Source of the DNA: a virus | Length of the DNA: 15,782 nt | Virus genome (UHGV): UHGV-0147861 | Strand: one strand, 5' to 3' | Part shown: in pieces, positions 3,721 through 14,380 of the stretch | How the letters are laid out: the number at the start of each line of letters is the position of its first letter | Position numbering within the stretch: position 1 is the first letter of the stretch | Notes under the pieces: generated by a model | Seen by the model: only the letters and a program-made list of their open reading frames with translations | Told to the model about the DNA's origin: nothing | Databases searched by the model: none | Made by a program: the position numbers and the translations under genes

Positions 3721-4110
3721 ATGGGCTTCCCTTCTCCTGCGGCGGATTATGTTGAAAGCCGAATTTCTCTTGATCAGCAGATAATTAGACATCCTTCAGC
3801 GACCTACTTCATGCGGGCAGCTGATAGCCATCACCGTGAGGGAATATTGCAGGGAGCTTTGCTGGTGGTTGATTCCTCGCTTACTCCGGTTGATGGTTCT
3901 CTGCTTGTGTGCGCTATGGAGGGTGAATATCGCATAAAGAGATACAGGAAGTATCCGCGCCAGCACCTGGAGGACTTAAGCACCGGGAAGAAAGAGGCGT
4001 TACCAGTAGATGACGATGGATACACGGGCAGCAATGCTGTTTTTGGTGTGATCACTCATGTCATCAATGATGCCCGAAGTGGGGAGTTTGATGATTGTCC
4101 GGTTATTTAA
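3721..4110 (+). CDS. humD: UmuD'-like SOS mutagenesis protein (P1 HumD-like)
   Basis: Protein begins MGFPSPAADYVESRISLDQQIIRHPSATYF, matching UmuD from its Cys24-Gly25 cleavage site onward; Ser (AADSH) and Lys (RIKRY) align with the UmuD S60/K97 dyad; C-terminal FGVITHVI conserved. Confidence 0.9.
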   Translation: MGFPSPAADYVESRISLDQQIIRHPSATYFMRAADSHHREGILQGALLVVDSSLTPVDGSLLVCAMEGEYRIKRYRKYPRQHLEDLSTGKKEALPVDDDGYTGSNAVFGVITHVINDARSGEFDDCPVI

Positions 4111-4145
4111 GCTGCAAAGGGCTGGTGCTTTATACCTGTGAAGTT

Positions 4146-4182
4146 TATAATTGTGTACACATAACGAGTACATGAGGTGTTT
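4146..4182 (+). promoter_or_regulatory. Putative phd-doc promoter/operator
   Basis: Perfect -10 TATAAT at 4146-4151 immediately followed by the 10-bp palindrome TGTGTACACA (4152-4161) and a second partial GTAC-containing site, upstream of the phd ATG; consistent with autoregulation by Phd at palindromic sites. Confidence 0.5.
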
Positions 4183-4404
4183 ATGCAATCCATTAACTTC
4201 CGTACCGCGCGCGGCAACCTTTCTGAAGTGCTCAACAATGTTGAAGCCGGGGAAGAGGTTGAAATCACCCGCAGAGGCCGTGAGCCAGCAGTAATTGTCA
4301 GCAAGGCTACTTTTGAAGCCTACAAAAAAGCGGCGCTGGATGCTGAATTTGCATCCCTGTTTGACACCCTGGACTCCACCAACAAGGAACTGGTTAACCG
4401 ATAA
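4183..4404 (+). CDS. phd: Antitoxin Phd (prevent host death)
   Basis: [73 protein letters not shown] matches my memory of P1 Phd (73 aa); ATG 4183 with GAGGTG RBS (track ORF starts 6 nt earlier at GTG). Confidence 0.92.
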
Positions 4405-4784
4405 TGAGGCATATATCACCGGAAGAACTTATTGCGCTTCATGATGCGAATATAAACCGCTACGGCGGCCTGCCGGGAATGTCTGATCCGGGTAGGGCAG
4501 AGGCCATTATCGGGAGAGTTCAGGCCAGAGTTGCCTACGAAGAGATCACCGACCTTTTCGAAGTCTCCGCCACCTACCTGGTGGCTACAGCGAGAGGGCA
4601 TATATTCAATGATGCCAATAAGCGTACCGCGCTAAACAGTGCGCTGCTATTTCTACGCCGTAACGGGGTGCAGGTATTTGATTCACCTGAACTGGCAGAC
4701 CTTACCGTAGGGACTGCGACAGGCGAGATATCTGTATCTACTGTCGCCGCCACGTTACGTAGATTGTATGGTTCTGCGGAGTAG
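4404..4784 (+). CDS. doc: Toxin Doc (death on curing), Fic-fold kinase
   Basis: [17 protein letters not shown]...[23 protein letters not shown] matches P1 Doc (126 aa) including the Fic-like HxFx(D/N)xNKR motif; start overlaps the phd stop (TAATG). Confidence 0.92.
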
Positions 4785-4788
4785 ATTA

Positions 4789-4968
4789 ATGGCACGCAAA
4801 TACAACAAATTGTCCCGTGAAGCGTTAAAGATGCTTCTTGATGGCGTGAGTCGCCGCAAGGTAAAGCAATACCTGGTTGGTAAGCAAATTGGAGTCAGGA
4901 CCGCTATTGCTGTGTTATGCCGTCAGGAAATGGTTGTGCTTAAACAGAGAATGCCGGGCAGCAGATAA
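4789..4968 (+). CDS. Small basic protein downstream of doc (PdcA-like), possible HTH
   Basis: ATG 4789 in the same frame as track ORF 4768..4968; sequence MARKYNKLSREALKMLLDGVSRRKVKQYLVGKQIGVRTAIAVL is basic and HTH-like. Position matches the post-doc genes of P1 as I remember them. Confidence 0.5.
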   Translation: MARKYNKLSREALKMLLDGVSRRKVKQYLVGKQIGVRTAIAVLCRQEMVVLKQRMPGSR

Positions 4969-4995
4969 AGCCCAATCAGTGATTAAAGGTGTGAT

Positions 4996-6039
4996 GTGAA
5001 AGCCGTAATTACTCCCTTTGTACAGAAAGAGCTTGGCCTCGCCACGTTCAAAGTGGATCAGGAGGTCAGAAAGCTGGTGGAGGCTGGCCGTAAATTTATT
5101 ATGGAGCCGGTGCCGCGTGAGTTAATCGAGCACATGGAAGACGGCCTCGTTGTTACCGAGCAAACCATGGCAACAAATGAGGCGTTGCAGCCGTTTTTTA
5201 ACAGCGATGAACTGTTTCGCCGTATTGGTGGAATTGACTCGCTGGTGGCGTGGTTGCGCAGGAAAGAGGGGCAATGCCAGGCCGCAGATCGTAGCTGGTG
5301 TGACAACCATATTGTCCACGCAGAACGAGACAATAGCGCGGTGTTGTTGTGCTGGCATCACGATAACCATTACCGGATGCGTGGTTTTAATGAGCTGAAA
5401 GAAACGCTGCACAATAATCGCGTTAACTGGATACTGGATGTCGCCCGTCAGGAAATGGGCCTTTCAAATAGCCATGATTTAAGTATTCAGGAGCTGTGCT
5501 GGTGGGCTTTCATGCGCAACATGATGCACCTGATGCCGGAAGAAGTCTGCCGCATATCAATAAATAAGATGAAGGCTACTCCGCAGGATAGCGGACCTCT
5601 GAAAGAGGCGGATATTCGCCCGTATGACGATCGCGCTACAGCATATGTTCAGATGATGGAAGAACGCGCCGCGCCGATGCGTGCAAAAGTATGCCCTGTG
5701 GATGTTGACTCCGACCCAGGTATGGCGCATTTCAAAATACCAAAACTTCAATCGCTAAAATTGCCCGAGTACATGGACTTTGTGGCTTCCCGTCCATGCT
5801 GTGGCTGTGGAGCTGCGGGAGCTGGCGCTCACATTACGCCTTATATCGTTCGTCATAGTCGATTATGCGCGCATGACATTTATGCTATTCCTCTGTGCCA
5901 GTCATGCCAGCGTGATATTGAGCGTGACCGCGATAATTGGGAGAAGACGCACGGTAGGCTGGCGATGCATCAACGATTGTTCTTTGATTACGCGCTTGGA
6001 GTCGGCGCTATCACAAGTCACTCGTCGAGCGTTAGATAA
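4996..6039 (+). CDS. pdcB: PdcB-like protein with HNH-like Cys/His clusters (347 aa)
   Basis: Long ORF with GTG start; motifs [13 protein letters not shown]...CWHHDNHY and C-terminal CCGCG...H...LCAHD...CQSCQ resemble HNH/zinc-finger nuclease signatures. Gene name inferred from position after doc. Confidence 0.65.
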
Positions 6040-6040
6040 A

Positions 6041-6083
6041 ATTGCTCTAATGTATTGCTATTTCTTTAATCGAGGGTATTATA
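6041..6083 (+). promoter_or_regulatory. C1 operator-like site overlapping putative lpa promoter
   Basis: ATTGCTCTAATGTATTG at 6041-6057 matches 14/17 of the P1 C1 operator consensus ATTGCTCTAATAAATTT (as I recall it); -35-like TTGCTA 6055-6060 and -10-like TATTAT 6077-6082 follow. Confidence 0.5.
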
Positions 6084-6127
6084 TTCCACGTTGATTAGTT
6101 GACATGGGCTAATCAGTAGGTGACAGG

Positions 6128-6580
6128 ATGTTACTTAACTGGCAGGGACGCCACTTCATGGAAATAAATCACTCACGAATAACATCGTACGAGATTGCGG
6201 ATTACATGATCCGCACTAAATCTCTTCTATCAGCGAAAGAGCTCGCAGCAATTCTTGAAAAGGAATACCCGCATCTGGATGTCGATAAGCGCGATGTTTA
6301 TCTGCGCTTAAAGGCTATCGCTGTGTCTAAGTATTCGTCTGTTTTGATTGATGACAGTACACGCCCACGTAGATTTCAGATCCACTCTCTGAATCCTGAA
6401 TTCTTTCGCCGTAGCCGCGCTCCGCGCCGGTTTGATGAAAAACTCCAGAACGAACTCTATATGACGCAGGACGAAAAGGAACGCCGGGAGCACCAGCCTT
6501 GGGTAATGGCGCGTCAACTTTTCAATAAGGTGGCCCGTCAGCACCGTCATTACGGTAATGCCACATCCGCACGTATCTGA
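6128..6580 (+). CDS. lpa: Late promoter activator (Lpa / gp10-like)
   Basis: 150-aa ORF immediately upstream of pacA, preceded by a C1 operator-like site, as in P1; basic protein; AGGTGA RBS before ATG 6128. Assignment mainly by synteny and size. Confidence 0.7.
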   Translation: MLLNWQGRHFMEINHSRITSYEIADYMIRTKSLLSAKELAAILEKEYPHLDVDKRDVYLRLKAIAVSKYSSVLIDDSTRPRRFQIHSLNPEFFRRSRAPRRFDEKLQNELYMTQDEKERREHQPWVMARQLFNKVARQHRHYGNATSARI

Positions 6581-6665
6581 TTGATTGCTTGCCCGTTCCG
6601 GGCCTTTTGACATGTGACTTTCGTTACCCTCGCGTCAAAAAGAGTTTTTACGAAAGGAAGCATAA

Positions 6666-7859
6666 GTGACCTGGGACGATCACAAGAAGAATTTTGCTCG
6701 CCTGGCGCGAGATGGTGGTTACACCATCGCACAGTATGCCGCCGAGTTTAATCTTAACCCTAATACTGCACGTCGTTATCTCCGTGCCTTCAAAGAAGAC
6801 ACCAGGACAGCGGACAGCCGCAAGCCAAATAAGCCAGTCAGGAAGCCACTAAAAAGCATGATCATTGATCACTCTAATGATCAACATGCAGGTGATCACA
6901 TTGCGGCTGAAATAGCGGAAAAACAAAGGGTTAATGCCGTTGTCAGTGCCGCAGTCGAGAACGCTAAGCGCCAAAATAAGCGCATAAATGATCGTTCTGA
7001 TGATCATGACGTGATCATCCGCGCCCACCGTACCTTACGTGATCGCCTGGAACGCGACACCCTGGATGATGATGGTGAACGCTTTGAATTCGAAGCTGGC
7101 GATTACCTGATAGATAACGTTGAAGCGCGGAAGGCCGCGCGCGCTATGTTGCGTCGGTCCGGGGCCGATGTTCTGGAAACCACTCTTCTGGAAAAGTCTC
7201 TTTCTCATCTCCTTATGCTGGAGAACGCCAGGGATACGTGTATTCGCCTGGTGCAGGAAATGCGCGATCAGCAAAAAGACGATGATGAAGGTACTCCGCC
7301 TGAATACCGTATCGCGAGCATGCTAAACAGCTGTTCCGCGCAGATAAGCAGCCTGATCAACACCATTTACAGCATCCGGAATAACTATCGAAAAGAAAGC
7401 CGGGAGGCGGAAAAGCACGCTTTGTCTATGGGGCAAGCTGGCATTGTTAAGCTGGCATACGAACGAAAGCGTGAAAATAACTGGTCAGTGCTGGAAGCAG
7501 CTGAATTCATCGAGGCGCATGGCGGGAAAGTGCCGCCCCTGATGCTGGAGCAAATCAAAGCCGATCTGCGTGCTCCTAAGACCAATACCGATGATGAGGA
7601 AAGGCAAACTGCCGTCGGTGGCCCTTCTCTTGAAGATCTGGACAAAGTTGCGCGAGAACGGGCCGCCAACCGCCGCGCCGATGCCGCATTGTGGATTGAG
7701 CAACGTAGGGAAGAAATCGCCGATATCGTTGATACAGGCGGTTATGGAGATGTTGATACTGAAGGTGTATCAAACGACCCATGGCTGGAACAAGACCTGG
7801 ACGAAGACGAGGAGGAAGACGAAGAAGTTACCCGCAAGCTATACGGGGATGATGATTAA
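6666..7859 (+). CDS. pacA: Terminase small/pac-recognition subunit PacA
   Basis: 397-aa ORF with GTG start and AGGAAG RBS; contains the pac hexamer arrays in its 5' third; acidic [10 protein letters not shown]-terminus; directly followed by pacB with a 1-nt overlap. Confidence 0.85.
6859..7017. other. pac packaging site: two arrays of TGATC(A/G) hexamers
   Basis: Four TGATCA copies at 6859-6864, 6866-6871, 6878-6883, 6893-6898 and three TGATC(A/G) copies at 6989-6994, 7001-7006, 7012-7017, about 90 bp apart; each contains a Dam GATC site. Matches the described P1 pac architecture. Confidence 0.8.
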
Positions 7860-9343
7860 TGGCCAGAAGTTGCGTAACGGATCCACGTTGGCGCGAGCTG
7901 GTGGCGCTATATCGTTATGACTGGATTGCGGCCGCTGATGTTTTGTTCGGCAAAACACCTACCTGGCAGCAGGATCTGATTATTGAGTCTGTGCAGGAAC
8001 AGGGTAGCAAGACATCTGTTTCGTCTGGTCACGGTACCGGGAAATCAGACATGACTTCTATCATGATCATGTTGTTCATAATCATGTATCCCGGTGCCCG
8101 CGCCATTATCGTTGCGAACAAAATTCAGCAGGTAATGACCGGTATATTCAAGTACATCAAGATAAACTGGGCTACTGCCACCAGCCGTTTTCCATGGCTT
8201 GCTGATTATTTTGTTCTGACAGAAACCGCTTTCTATGAGGTTACTGGTAAAGGTGTATGGACTGTAGTACCGAAGGGCTTTCGTCTGGGAAGTGAAGAAG
8301 CTCTCGCCGGTGAACACGCAGATCATCTTCTGTATATTATCGATGAAGCCTCCGGTGTCAGTGATAGAGCTTTCGGTATCATCACCGGTGCTCTTACCGG
8401 ACAGGATAACCGCATCTTATTACTGTCACAGCCTACACGCCCAAGCGGCTATTTCTACGATACTCACCATAAACTGGCCAAGCGTCCTGGTAACCCAGAT
8501 GGCGTTTATACGGCGATCACGCTTAACAGTGAGGAATCACCGCTGGTAACGCCAGAATTTATCAAAATGAAGCTGGCGGAGTACGGCGGGCGTGATAACC
8601 CTATGTACATGATTAAGGTACGCGGGCTATTCCCTAAATCACAGGACGGCTTCCTTCTTGGACGTGATGAGGTTGAACGTGCGACGCGGCGGAAAGTCAA
8701 GATTGCCAAAGGATGGGGCTGGCTTGCATGTGTGGACGTTGCTGGTGGTACAGGACGGGATAAGTCCGTTATCAATATCATGATGGTGTCCGGCCAGCGA
8801 AATAAACGCCGTGTAATCAACTATCGAATGCTGGAATACACAGACGTTACAGAAACGCAGCTTGCCGCCAAAATTTTCGCAGAATGTAATCCTGAGCGAT
8901 TCCCCAATATCACCATAGCGATAGACGGCGATGGCCTGGGTAAAGCAACGGCGGATCTGATGTACGAGTATTATGGTATTACCGTACAGCGTATACGCTG
9001 GGGTAAAAAGATGCATAGCCGTGAAGATAAGAGCCTGTACTTTGATAAACGTGCTTATGCCAATGTTCAAGCCGCAGAGGCCGTAAAATCTGGTCGTATG
9101 AGACTGGATAAGGGTAATGAAACTATTGAGGAAGCGTCGAAAATCCCTGTAGGGATTAACTCCGCAGGTCAATGGAAGGTGATGAGTAAGGAGGATATGA
9201 AGAAAAAACTCAACCTGCACTCACCAGACCATTGGGATACATATTGTTTCGCTATGCTGGCGGATTATGTTCCCCAGGATGAAGTGCTTAGCGTCGAAGA
9301 CGAAGCGCAGGTTGATGAAGCTCTGGCATGGCTTAATGAATGA
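7859..9343 (+). CDS. pacB: Terminase large subunit PacB
   Basis: 494-aa ORF; Walker A-like GHGTGKS near the N-terminus, Walker B-like [11 protein letters not shown]-terminal nuclease-like region; start overlaps the pacA stop. Confidence 0.9.
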
Positions 9344-9363: not shown

Positions 9364-9495
9364 TGTTTTTTAGCTACCGATGCTACATTGAACCTGACCT
9401 CTTGCGCCTTGTGGCATTTTCGGTTTATGCTTATCAGGCACCTCATTAAAACGGGTGCCGGGATTGAGACCCCGGATAATGCAAAAGGCGACACA

Positions 9496-9517
9496 GACGC
9501 CAAAAGCGTCTTTTTTT
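9496..9517 (+). terminator. Possible intrinsic terminator or attenuator hairpin
   Basis: GACGC-CAAAA-GCGTC hairpin (9496-9510) followed by a run of seven T (9511-9517); the stem is short, so strength is uncertain. Confidence 0.35.
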
Positions 9518-9554: not shown

Positions 9555-9650
9555 TCAGAGATCAATGGTAGTGCTGGCTGGGCTGCCGAAAGGCAGGCCG
9601 GTTCCCTTTTGCGCCGGTAGTCTCAACCCAGTCAGTGCTACCGCCATTGA
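9555..9650 (+). ncRNA. c4: c4-like antisense RNA (immI repressor RNA), boundaries approximate
   Basis: Structured region with a GNRA-capped hairpin (CUGCC-GAAA-GGCAG, 9583-9596) and a long G-U-containing stem. Two elements are complementary to the downstream leader: 9636-9643 GCUACCGC pairs with 9665-9672 GCGGUAGC, and 9563-9571 CAAUGGUAG pairs with 9695-9703 CUGCCAUUG, bracketing the icd RBS and start codon. Confidence 0.5.
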
Positions 9651-9702: not shown

Positions 9703-9924
9703 GTGGCTACTATCCCTACCCCTGCTCATCCTGAATTTATCTGGCGCTTTTACTCCTGCCAAAAACGTCACTATCACTTCGTTATTGCACCGACAGAAGA
9801 TGAGGCACGTTCTCAGCTTCCTGACGCCCCATGTATTTTCTCTGCCCGTTTTTCCACTGATTCACACAATTCTCTCAGTTACTGGTGCCTCCCTGTTAAC
9901 GCTTCTGCTCTGGAGGGGCTATGA
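9703..9924 (+). CDS. icd: Icd-like small protein (73 aa), translationally coupled to ant
   Basis: GTG 9703 preceded by AAAGGAGG at 9687-9694; stop overlaps the ant ATG (ATGA, 9921-9924); size and position match the P1 icd gene as I recall it. The protein sequence itself is not recognised. Confidence 0.55.
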   Translation: MATIPTPAHPEFIWRFYSCQKRHYHFVIAPTEDEARSQLPDAPCIFSARFSTDSHNSLSYWCLPVNASALEGL

Positions 9925-11036
9925 GAACATCATTAGTCACCCGTAAAGAAATGATCGAGGCAATTGAACAGCACACTGCCTGTATCAGTACCAGGGATAT
10001 ACCTGGCGTTATTGCCAACTACTTCATGATCACCAAACAACTTTACCGGAGAAAGGACAAAAACGCGGTTCACCGCATTCTGCTAACCGATATCCGTGAA
10101 TACCTGCTCGAACAGGGTCATCTGAATTACGCAACCGTCGCAGCCGAAGCACGCAAGGAGGCACACAGAATGAAAGCAACTAACGTTAAATCAGAAAAAA
10201 CTCATGCACCTTCAGTTCAGGAATCGGAGCTGGTGGTTGTTCAGAATCAGTCTGATGAAATTCCCGTTCTGGAATGGCTGGGAGTGCGTGTAGTGACAAC
10301 TAAGATCCTTGCTAAGGGGTATGGGACAGATGCGGATAACATCAAGAAGAACTTTTCCCGTAATGCTGAACGTTTTTGTGAAGGCAAGCATTTCTATAAA
10401 GTTATTGGAGATGATTTGAACAATTTGCGGGTGACTTTAAGTAACTCACAAAATCCTATCTCTCCTAAAGCCCGCTCACTCATCCTCTGGACGGAACGCG
10501 GCGCAGCCCGCCACGCTAAAATGATCGAAACCGATCAGGCATGGGCATTCTTTGAAAAACTGGAAGACAGCTACTTCCGACAAAAAGAACAGCAACCGAT
10601 CGCAATCCCCCAGACGCTTCCAGAAGCTCTGCGCCTTGCTGCCGAACTGGCTGAACAAAAGCAACTTCTGGAACAGAAAGCCCATCAGCTAAATCAGCAG
10701 CTGGTGGCCGCAGCCCCCAAAGTCGATTTTGCCGACCGGGTATCAGTGGCTAAGGGGATCCTGATTGGGAATTTTGCAAAGGTCGTTGGACTTAAACAAA
10801 ATGCGCTGTTTGCCTGGTTACGGGAGAACGGCATTCTGATAGCGTCCGGCGGCCGTAAAAATGTACCGTTCCAGCAGTACATAAACGCCGGATATTTCAC
10901 AGTGAAAGAAGTGGTGCTGGATGATGAAGAGGGCTACCAGATACGGCTGACGCCCCAATTAACGGGGAAAGGCCAACAGTGGTTGACGCGTAAACTGCTC
11001 GATGCTGGCTTGTTAAAACCGGTGGCGGCTGAATAA
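9921..11036 (+). CDS. ant: Antirepressor Ant (Ant1; in-frame internal start at 10170 gives Ant2)
   Basis: 371-aa ORF with phage antirepressor-type N- and C-terminal regions (C-terminal KilA-C/ANT-like segment PKVDFADRVSVAKGILIGNFAKVVGLKQNALFAWLRENGIL). Internal ATG 10170 has AAGGAGG at 10155-10161 and would give a 288-aa product; the size ratio matches P1 Ant1/Ant2 (about 42/32 kDa). Confidence 0.8.
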   Translation: MRTSLVTRKEMIEAIEQHTACISTRDIPGVIANYFMITKQLYRRKDKNAVHRILLTDIREYLLEQGHLNYATVAAEARKEAHRMKATNVKSEKTHAPSVQESELVVVQNQSDEIPVLEWLGVRVVTTKILAKGYGTDADNIKKNFSRNAERFCEGKHFYKVIGDDLNNLRVTLSNSQNPISPKARSLILWTERGAARHAKMIETDQAWAFFEKLEDSYFRQKEQQPIAIPQTLPEALRLAAELAEQKQLLEQKAHQLNQQLVAAAPKVDFADRVSVAKGILIGNFAKVVGLKQNALFAWLRENGILIASGGRKNVPFQQYINAGYFTVKEVVLDDEEGYQIRLTPQLTGKGQQWLTRKLLDAGLLKPVAAE

Positions 11037-11068: not shown

Positions 11069-11920
11069 TTATTGCGCGCTTTCGGGGTTGTCGTTTACTG
11101 GCTGCCCCTTCTTGGTTTTACGGCTGCGCGTAACTGATGCGGCTGACTTAACCTTTTTCTCTTCGCGAGTGATGGCAATTTGTTTTTTTACATTTTCAAT
11201 ATCTGCCAGGCGATATATTTTTGCTTGTGGCCAGCGGTCGCAGATGATCGGTTCTATGGAGTCATAAAGGCTAAATTTTGCTTTTTCGAATTCACCGTTG
11301 ATGATGATTCCATCACGGAGAGTTTCATCGCAGATAAACACGCCACACAGCGGTACATGGTAACTAACTGATTTACCATCATTGTAGTTAGGGCTACTGG
11401 AGATGTAGTGGACGCGCAGCATTGTTTCGCTAAAGCCGTGTACGCGCATACGGAATTTTTCATCCTCCGGGTACTGCTTCATTAGCTCTTTTGTTGCTTC
11501 CAGGTTCTCTATGTATTTCGCACTGTGCTCATTGATCCCCGCGCTTTTTTGGATGCGAATGTCCTTATCAATCAGATGAATAATGCGGCCAGCGGTCATG
11601 TTGACGCTGTTCACAGCTTCTGTCTGATAAGTTGTAACCTTGCGCACACCGCGAAGGATGTTAGGCACTGGATATAAAATAGTCTTTGGGATATTGAGGT
11701 CTGGGTACTGTTCCAGTTCCCGCGCCATTAAAGTCCATTTATCAATTTCAGCCTGAATGCTGTCAGTTTCTTTGAACGGTAGAACGACAACCGGGCGTAC
11801 AGGACGACCGTCGCTGGCTGTATCAACGTGTTGGGCGCGTGCAACAGCTTTTTTTAGAAAGAGATCCCTGAAGCTGACGAACTCCTGGTACAGTTGTTCG
11901 CCGTAGACATAATTTATCAT
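11069..11920 (-). CDS. c1: Primary immunity repressor C1
   Basis: 283-aa protein MINYVYGEQLYQEFVSFRDLFLKKAVARAQHVD... matches my memory of P1 C1 in sequence and length; strong RBS GGAGGAGGATCA before the ATG (minus strand). Confidence 0.93.
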   Translation of the reverse strand: MINYVYGEQLYQEFVSFRDLFLKKAVARAQHVDTASDGRPVRPVVVLPFKETDSIQAEIDKWTLMARELEQYPDLNIPKTILYPVPNILRGVRKVTTYQTEAVNSVNMTAGRIIHLIDKDIRIQKSAGINEHSAKYIENLEATKELMKQYPEDEKFRMRVHGFSETMLRVHYISSSPNYNDGKSVSYHVPLCGVFICDETLRDGIIINGEFEKAKFSLYDSIEPIICDRWPQAKIYRLADIENVKKQIAITREEKKVKSAASVTRSRKTKKGQPVNDNPESAQ

Positions 11921-12802: not shown

Positions 12803-14380
12803 TTATCCTCGTTTTTCCCAAAACTGTTTTGCCAGTTCGCTCAGAGCGCTAGTTAACTGAGCGACAGATTTCGCACTTTGCAAATTATTCTGCCCGGTCT
12901 GTACATTGGTATCAGCAGCATCGCGTATATTGATAATACTGCGGTTTATGTCTTCACTTACTGCTCCCTGCTGCTCGACCGCAGTCGCTATTTGCGCGTT
13001 CATGTCGGTAATTTCGTTAACGCGTTGGCCAATTCCATCAAGAGCTGTAGCTGCTTCCTCTGCGTGAGCTACACTCGTGTGCGCTTGCCGACTACTTTGC
13101 TCCATGACTGTAACAGCGGATTGCGCTCGCTCTTGTAGAGCGCTGATCATGCTTTGAATATCCGTTGTCGATTGCTGTGTGCGAGCAGCAAGACTGCGAA
13201 CCTCATCGGCGACAACAGCAAAACCACGCCCCTGCTCACCAGCACGCGCGGCCTCAATTGCTGCGTTGAGTGCCAACAAATTCGTTTGCTCGGCGATCCC
13301 TCGTATAACGTCAAGAACTTTTGATATCTCGTTACTTTGACCTTCAAGCTCATGAATAACCTGAGTGGCTTGCCTAATTTCACCTTCAAGGGCAGTGATT
13401 GACTGGCTTGTGTGGGCTACCAGACGCTGGCCAGATGCCGTCTCAGTGTCTGCTCTTCCGGCCGCATCTGCAGCATGCTGTGCATTGCTCGCAACCTCTT
13501 GAATGCTTGCCACCATTTGGTTTACTGCCGTTGCTATTTGATCTGTCTCTGCCTGCTGCTCAACTGTAAGTACATTGCTTGACTCAATATCCTTTAGTAG
13601 GCCTCGGGTGTGTTCGCTAAGCCGATTTGATGCATCACCTATGCGACCTACTATGGCGCCTGTTTCAGCTTGCATCATTCGTAAAGCAAACTCTATTTGG
13701 CCAAACTCATCGGTGCGCCCAGTGTAGAGGGATTGACTTAATGGGTTATTGGAAATATTCCTGGCTCTTTCAACCAGTCTTCCAAGAGGAGAGAGAATAG
13801 CCAAAACACTAACAGAGCTTAAGCTTCCTGACATTAAAGTGGCTAACAATAAGCTGCTTATTGATGTATCAGTAAGCATGCCGGCAGCCATTGCGCTTGA
13901 TATAATACTACCCCATATGAGCAAGAGTATTTTCACGGAAAAGCTAGCAGCCAATTTCGGCCTCGCGGCCTTCCCGCTTCTCAATTGAGCATATAATTTT
14001 TCCGCAGCCAAAACCTGCTCAGGTTCAGGCTTGGTCCTTACAGACTGGTATTCAACAATCGAACCATTCTTAGCTATTGGCGTTACATAAGCACTTACCC
14101 AATAGTGGTCGCCATTTTTACAGCGATTTTTTACTAGCCCCATCCATGAGCGGCCAGATTTTAATGTACTCCACATATGCTCAAATGCAGCAGGCGGCAT
14201 ATCTGGGTGTCTTACGATGTTGTGAGGCTGGCCTAATAGTTCTTCCTCAGTGAAACCACTGATTTTAATGAAGTCAGGATTAACGTACGTGATATGGCTT
14301 TGAGGGGAGGTAGTCGAAAGAATATTGGCATCTTTTGGGAGTTCTAAGTTTCGACCCGTCACTGGTAAATTCTGGCGCAT
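12803..14380 (-). CDS. Methyl-accepting chemotaxis protein, Aer-like (PAS + HAMP + MCP signalling domain)
   Basis: N-terminal PAS-like region ([31 protein letters not shown]), hydrophobic segments, and the highly conserved MCP signalling motif [42 protein letters not shown]; corresponds to the orfI chemoreceptor-like gene of Tn1721. Confidence 0.9.

Follow-up and report, generated by a model that had tools for sequence, protein, structure and literature searches.

The DNA analysed here is a stretch of 15,782 nucleotides from the virus genome UHGV-0147861 (referred to as the window), which megablast identified as belonging to a P1-like phage-plasmid. Over positions 4100-6700 (2601 nt) it was 99.0% identical at the nucleotide level to Salmonella phage SJ46 and 98.6% identical to P1. 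This near-identity, together with the P1 annotation mapped onto the window, identifies the interval 4789-6039 as the genes pdcA and pdcB (Table 1). P1 and its relatives P7 and SJ46 carry the same genes in the shared order humD-phd-doc-pdcA-pdcB-lpa-pacA, and the few substitutions relative to P1 include five that are non-synonymous in pdcB and one in pdcA. In the P1 annotation both names are derived from "post-doc" and the function is listed as unknown, while in P7 pdcA is named fdc and pdcB is named upf95.7. Both genes are therefore already catalogued, and the fold assignment of PdcB discussed below is likewise already found in Pfam, PHROGs and RefSeq.

Table 1. Features of the window around pdcA and pdcB (positions are those of the whole window)
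Feature	Position	Strand	Basis or remark
humD	3721-4110		P1 annotation mapped onto the window
phd, antitoxin gene	4183-4404	+	P1 annotation mapped; the phd-doc-pdcA cassette begins here
doc, toxin gene	4404-4784	+	stop codon 4782-4784; last codons contain the GGAG serving pdcA
pdcA	4789-4968	+	59 aa; ATG start; basic orphan ORF
pdcB	4996-6039	+	347 aa; GTG start; YdfU/DUF968-family protein
PdcB residues 94-153, N-terminal zinc cluster (C94, C102, C119, H122)	5275-5454	+	predicted beta-beta-alpha unit
PdcB residues 161-337, Pfam DUF968 match	5476-6006	+	170.4 bits
PdcB residues 266-320, C-terminal His-Me finger with putative Cys4 zinc site and degenerate active site	5791-5955	+	motif, fold, hhalign
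C1 operator Olpa and promoter Plpa	6041-6082	+	directly 3' of the pdcB stop; P1 annotation mapped
lpa, late promoter activator	6128-6580	+	Pfam BPP1_LPA, E 3e-57
pacA	6666-7859		P1 annotation mapped
pacB	7859-9343		

Both open reading frames that a preliminary description, made from the sequence alone, had placed in this interval are real and have the coordinates given there. The pdcA start codon lies 4 nt past the doc stop codon and is preceded at 7 nt by a GGAG located within the end of doc. An alternative in-frame ATG at 4768, which is used by P1's own annotation, would give a protein of 66 aa, but the database entries for PdcA are mostly of 59 aa. For pdcB, an AAAGG is found 6 nt before the GTG, and its homologues start with MKAVITPF at the same codon. 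Promoter prediction returned a site of the form TTGCTA-16-TATTAT at 6055-6082. Since the stretch from doc to lpa contains no predicted terminator-like site, Pphd transcripts reading through pdcA and pdcB would enter the C1-controlled promoter region of lpa.

The description of the first gene product as a small basic protein was borne out, since PdcA has 15 K/R against only 3 D/E residues (net charge about +12). It had also been described as HTH-like, and here no match to an HTH family was obtained at E <=1 in Pfam or NCBIfam, nor any relevant match among PDB sequences. PdcA matched phrog_3345, a group of unknown function (E 9e-44). All homologues that were found are at least 73% identical to it, those with a named host being from Escherichia or Salmonella, and searches of Pfam, NCBIfam, PHROGs and homologues gave no distant relative and no domain. 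Counts of synonymous to non-synonymous substitutions in pdcA (1:1, 1:3 and 4:4) are too few to decide on selection. The copy in pLKJULY7989 appeared divergent at 79.7% identity, but it proved to be a truncated or rearranged copy and not a distant homologue: it lies downstream of an IS26, and its homology to the window begins inside pdcA, at 4826. The possibility that pdcA represents a structured RNA or a terminator was rejected, as the RNA fold gave a z of +0.45, no terminator was predicted and Rfam had no entry there.

The two genes had been proposed to act as a pair of a regulator and a nuclease. Comparison of P1-like elements and plasmids shows that they are inherited separately: pdcA persists with phd-doc where pdcB is not intact, and pdcB persists with lpa-pacAB where pdcA is missing. 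In phage D6 the segment phd-doc-pdcA is retained at 97% nucleotide identity, and the homology stops at window position 4970, just 2 nt past the pdcA stop codon, while the D6 homologue of pdcB (orf98) is located next to ppp, at a distance of 5 kb. The segment that the IncF plasmid pCREC-629_1 shares with the window, 4101-5273, comprises phd, doc, pdcA and no more than the first 278 nt of pdcB. pdcA is present in 1161 PLSDB plasmids, of which 515 are conjugative or mobilizable; about 415 PLSDB plasmids encode only PdcB residues 1-114 and 852 carry a copy that covers at least 80% of the length. The phd-doc cassette found on many conjugative IncF-type plasmids is thus a fragment of P1-like DNA with an intact pdcA and a 5' stump of pdcB that covers residues 1-114 or fewer, and the copies of phd-doc-pdcA in D6 and the IncF plasmids share DNA that is about 97% identical. 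In pCREC-629_1 the cassette (L003, 2813-3985) adjoins a type I restriction-modification locus.

The reverse arrangement was found in the more divergent P1-like elements. Those in which PdcB is about 70% identical (loci L008-L013) retain the order pdcB-lpa-pacA-pacB-c1, and an element with PdcB at 37% identity (L007) retains pdcB-lpa, the adjacency lying at 376-1940 in L007 and at 4001-5582 in both L008 and L010. None of phd, doc and pdcA was found upstream of pdcB in L007 or in L008-L013. Taken together with the D6 and IncF arrangements, this means that pdcB forms part of the backbone and is tied to lpa, and that phd-doc-pdcA is an inserted cassette. On present evidence pdcA and pdcB are therefore neighbours from separate modules and not a functional unit.

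PdcB belongs to a recognised protein family. Residues 161-337 match Pfam DUF968 (PF06147) with an E of 4.6e-50 and a score well above the cutoff of 27.8 bits, spanning all profile positions (1-171 of 171), and PHROG 96 matches the full length of the protein; both RefSeq and PHROG 96 carry the label "HNH endonuclease". At a threshold of E <=0.001, an exhaustive profile search returned 211 representative clusters, of which about 40 are full-length. These full-length relatives, of roughly 320-370 aa, align to PdcB over nearly its whole length and represent the "YdfU family" of lambdoid, Stx, SfV-like, Klebsiella and Vibrio phages; DUF968 was matched by all 35 of the aligned relatives. In tblastn, a canonical member (P0031) matched P1 pdcB over 90% of its length. 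Members such as YdfU of the E. coli Qin prophage, SfV Orf45 and mEp390 gp45 are collinear with PdcB end to end, and share with it an N-terminal zinc module, a helical middle region and a C-terminal His-Me finger, as well as the motifs CQ...LCWHHDN and [KR]E[ST]D and the invariant residues K250, D294 and P299. In lambdoid phage mEp390 the gene lies between rusA and Q. Three further sequences (P0049, P0088 and P0089) carry the N-terminal half of YdfU, about 160-250 aa, fused to tail-fibre or host-specificity (J-like) sequences; prophage rearrangement or chimeric assembly is a more probable origin of these than genuine domain fusion. It was also observed that a YdfU-family gene stands directly upstream of a late-gene regulator in very different phages, namely lpa in the P1-like elements and Q in mEp390 (L004, 3947-5316).

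An AlphaFold model of PdcB was built on the family alignment (mean pLDDT 87.4). The two Cys/His clusters that had been noted in the 347-aa protein are present as described, and cysteines in both are invariant in 14 P1-like homologues that reach down to 37% identity, which marks the clusters as more than chance features. The C-terminal cluster reads C268-C-G-C271-G...C291-A-H293-D...C301-x2-C304. Of these residues C268, C271, C301 and C304, which form a putative structural zinc site, are invariant in the 14 homologues together with H293 and D294. In the model, strands 280-284 and 297-301 and a helix at 302-319 make up a beta-beta-alpha unit, and fold comparison supports its assignment as a His-Me finger with a Cys4 zinc site, in agreement with the nuclease-like fold that had been suggested. 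By hhalign the finger aligned to P1 Ref (E 5.6e-6) and to E. coli YbcO (E 2.4e-5). This relationship was visible only by fold comparison and pairwise hhalign, as searches against PDB chain sequences gave no relevant matches, whether the query was PdcB alone, the 35-sequence profile or a profile of the N-terminal half. It accords with a published classification in which DUF968 and DUF1364 (YbcO, PDB 3g27) together constitute group 7 of the His-Me finger superfamily (PMC5714182, Jablonska et al. 2017). We consider the family and fold assignment of PdcB to be very probably correct.

The active site of this finger tells a different story in the P1-like clade. The family motif is QPCxxCG..ADDPHHxIGHGxGGMGTKAHDLFxxPLCRxCHxELH, and in 30 of the 31 proteins from outside the P1 clade histidine occupies all four positions that correspond to Y283, I284, Q305 and E309 of PdcB. 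In every P1-like member the HH...H...H set is replaced at these positions. Y283-I284 stand in place of the H-H pair, so that the general-base histidine at the end of strand beta1 is absent, and Q305 and E309 stand in place of H-x3-H, so that the helix metal-ligand His/Asn is absent as well; position 309 is E, A or R in the aligned P1-clade members. In hhalign Y283-I284 align with H112-H113 of Ref and with an A-H pair of YbcO. Ref (PDB 3plw), a RecA-dependent HNH nuclease of P1, retains its histidines, including H112 and H113, but has no counterpart to PdcB residues 1-260, while YbcO of E. coli DLP12 (PDB 3g27, DUF1364) is a single domain of 96 aa that retains the beta1 histidine and CxxCH. The P1-like clade also lacks the 7-residue glycine-rich loop (GHGxGGMG).

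In a pattern scan of 167 family proteins the C..C..HH..D..H...H arrangement was complete in 63, and the full-length proteins that have the zinc cysteines without the histidine set all belong to the P1-like clade, which comprises the P1/SJ46 type, lineages of 66-81% identity, D6 orf98 (38%) and an ENA contig (37%). The only other non-matches were two fragments of about 110 aa that keep the HH and are cut off by the pattern. The canonical members show the opposite tendency, with the histidine set fixed (DPHH...KAHD...PLCRxCHxELH) and the zinc cysteines sometimes lost, whereas in the P1 clade the four histidines are gone and the Cys4 set is strictly kept. Among the P1-like lineages, identity in the C-terminal domain is 0.76 compared with 0.62-0.86 for other regions, and judged from these sequences the finger domain of the P1 clade is not decaying but appears as conserved as the remaining protein. 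For pdcB as a whole, synonymous and non-synonymous substitutions numbered 15:5 relative to P1 and 22:12 relative to pLKJULY7989.

In sites of the colicin-type H-N-H the HH...N...H-x3-H residues supply the general base and the metal ligands. By analogy with these sites, and by homology to Ref and YbcO, the HH...H...H set of the YdfU family would have a catalytic role, and since all four histidines are replaced in the P1 clade the canonical catalytic apparatus would be gone there. It is likely, on this analogy, that PdcB has lost canonical catalysis, and the nuclease activity proposed in the preliminary description would then not apply to it.

The N-terminal cluster, C94-x7-C102...C119-W-H-H-D-N-H, was only in part as had been proposed. 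Of the "two HNH-like clusters" the C-terminal one is a His-Me finger, while the N-terminal unit resembles one only weakly and has no conserved general base. C94, C119 and W120-H125 (CWHHDNH) are invariant in the 14 P1-like homologues, and each of C94, C119 and, from the C-terminal cluster, C268 is retained by at least 90% of 35 proteins of 19-69% identity. The AlphaFold model predicts strands at 106-111 and 114-119 and a helix from residue 120. The conserved ligand positions are C94, 102 (C or H), C119 and 122 (H or C), and such alternation of cysteine and histidine is typical of metal ligands. W120, D123 and N141 are mostly conserved in the family, but a candidate general base is not: residues 103 and 121 are variable, and conservation is also lacking where strand beta1 ends. 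When the unit was compared with Ref by hhalign, only a 12-residue stretch matched Ref KQLPLCRWHHQHA (E 0.001). We read the region as a weak beta-beta-alpha unit with a four-ligand zinc-binding site; it is probably structural and possibly a relic His-Me finger. An internal duplication relating the N-terminal to the C-terminal unit was unsupported (hhalign E 0.09). The Orf/NinB family (YbcN) has been said to form the N-terminal part of DUF968 proteins in Gram-positive phages (PMC4118853). Lambda Orf/NinB and PdcB are both phage nin-region DNA-metabolism proteins with the DUF968 label in common, but an Orf/NinB-like domain in PdcB residues 157-257 was rejected, as hhalign against YbcN, a single Orf-family sequence, gave an E of 0.39 and the region is all-helical in the model.

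The best account of the interval is that of neighbours from two modules: pdcA is a small, basic orphan ORF that closes the mobile phd-doc cassette, and pdcB is the first gene of a conserved backbone block, pdcB-lpa-pacA-pacB. PdcB is a YdfU/DUF968 protein with two predicted zinc-binding beta-beta-alpha units. The C-terminal unit is a His-Me finger with homology to Ref of P1 and YbcO of E. coli; in the P1 clade it has kept its zinc cysteines and the invariant Asp and given up the four histidines and the glycine-rich loop. Since the histidines are lost and the N-terminal unit is without a general base, PdcB is probably a zinc-dependent binder and not an active nuclease, and we envisage that it binds DNA or a partner protein without catalysis, its fold being stabilised by zinc. 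In this role it would be a dispensable accessory factor in DNA transactions, and neither an endonuclease nor a defence effector. Taken as a whole, this account of known P1 genes in two modules with a non-catalytic PdcB seems to us somewhat more likely than not. Of the functions named in the preliminary description its alternative of a nucleic-acid-binding protein appears the most plausible. That binding is the function which PdcB has retained, with DNA as the ligand assumed from the fold, is a reasonable possibility that falls short of a firm expectation.

The labels in RefSeq and PHROG 96 express the contrary view, that PdcB is an active HNH endonuclease. It would then have a rewired active site, built for example from H293/D294 of the C-terminal finger or from H121/H122/D123/N124 of the N-terminal unit, and its substrates would be intermediates of recombination or replication, as has been proposed for the nin-region nucleases. 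The His-Me fold itself, the invariance of H293 and D294 in the P1 clade and of CWHHDNH in the 14 homologues, and the position of lambdoid relatives next to rusA are all consistent with it, and a recombination role, including that of a nuclease, has been proposed for group 7, although without experiments (PMC5714182). With H293-D294 and the N-terminal HHDN conserved, a non-canonical active site might be conceivable. Nevertheless, with the four histidines replaced throughout the clade, we regard an active PdcB as unlikely. A literature search found no functional studies of YdfU or DUF968 proteins. Of much lower probability is the proposal of a two-gene unit for defence or anti-defence, tied to the addiction module, in which pdcA is the regulator and pdcB the nuclease. 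Accessory genes often cluster near toxin-antitoxin modules, pdcA and pdcB are neighbours on one strand, no terminator is predicted from doc to pdcB, and a non-essential pdcB is compatible with an accessory role. Against this, the PADLOC-DB v2 models of defence proteins gave no family at E <=1 for PdcA or PdcB, searches of PdcA gave no HTH signal, the residues of the nuclease site are degenerate and the two genes are inherited separately. Furthermore, pdcB belongs to the backbone, where it is syntenic with lpa-pacAB, and its relatives are found in lambdoid nin regions and not in defence islands. Published work indicates that pdcB is dispensable: knockdown by CRISPRi classed it as non-essential (PMC10695390), a kanR insertion in the gene was tolerated (PMC10067587) and a pdcB insertion mutant formed stable lysogens (PMC10999674). 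A defence or anti-defence function is, in our opinion, very improbable.

A further alternative concerns pdcA only and leaves pdcB aside. Its start 4 nt after the doc stop codon, with the GGAG located in doc, the D6 cassette boundary 2 nt past its stop codon, and the several hundred conjugative or mobilizable plasmids in which an intact pdcA accompanies phd-doc and pdcB is truncated would all suit a third functional component of phd-doc, translationally coupled to doc, for example a small basic protein that binds nucleic acids and modulates the operon or Doc. That pdcA may be the third gene of the phd-doc cassette is a fair hypothesis, since it is tightly coupled to doc and retained with the cassette, but the evidence is weak since all copies descend from nearly identical DNA. 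At 73% identity or more, co-occurrence reflects descent and does not count as independent evidence. In addition, PdcA was without distant homologues or a domain in the searches made, its substitution counts do not demonstrate purifying selection, and phd and doc alone are sufficient for addiction. A functional third component is therefore quite improbable, and we retain the description of pdcA as an orphan ORF at the end of the cassette.

Returning to PdcB as a non-catalytic binder, what is at stake is little, as these are catalogued and dispensable P1 genes. The modest new point is that the annotation "HNH endonuclease" is probably incorrect across the whole clade. Since the catalytic histidines are absent the product name is probably misleading, and it touches the 852 full-length copies of PdcB in PLSDB plasmids. 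Among P1-like phage-plasmids, few genes are as conserved as pdcB (PMC9603915). We tentatively suggest that these elements may keep a catalytically dead descendant of a Ref/YbcO-type His-Me finger nuclease, under purifying selection and always directly upstream of lpa. If so, such a pseudo-nuclease might act through binding, for instance to DNA that is branched or damaged, or it might compete with a nuclease of the host or phage or serve as its decoy, and the RefSeq name would be wrong for the entire clade. For studying the activity of the family, the better targets are the canonical YdfU proteins found in lambdoid and Stx phages, which have an intact site and are encoded next to rusA and Q. 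For work on phd-doc in IncF plasmids, an intact pdcA followed by a pdcB stump marks the cassette as a fragment of P1-like DNA.

Elsewhere in the window, an isrK-like sRNA (9438-9516) and a C4 antisense RNA (9561-9648) were both detected above the Rfam gathering scores, and are followed by an ORF of 371 aa (9921-11036, + strand) for an antirepressor with ORF6N and ANT/KilAC domains. The segment 9438-11036 (+ strand) corresponds to an immI-like antirepressor module beside immC, lying between pacB and a c1-like ORF (11069-11920, - strand); in the P1 map c1 presumably follows pacB directly. An ORF of 525 aa at 12803-14380 (- strand) contains PAS, HAMP and MCP-signalling domains and encodes an Aer-like chemotaxis or aerotaxis receptor, which is unusual cargo for a P1-like phage-plasmid.
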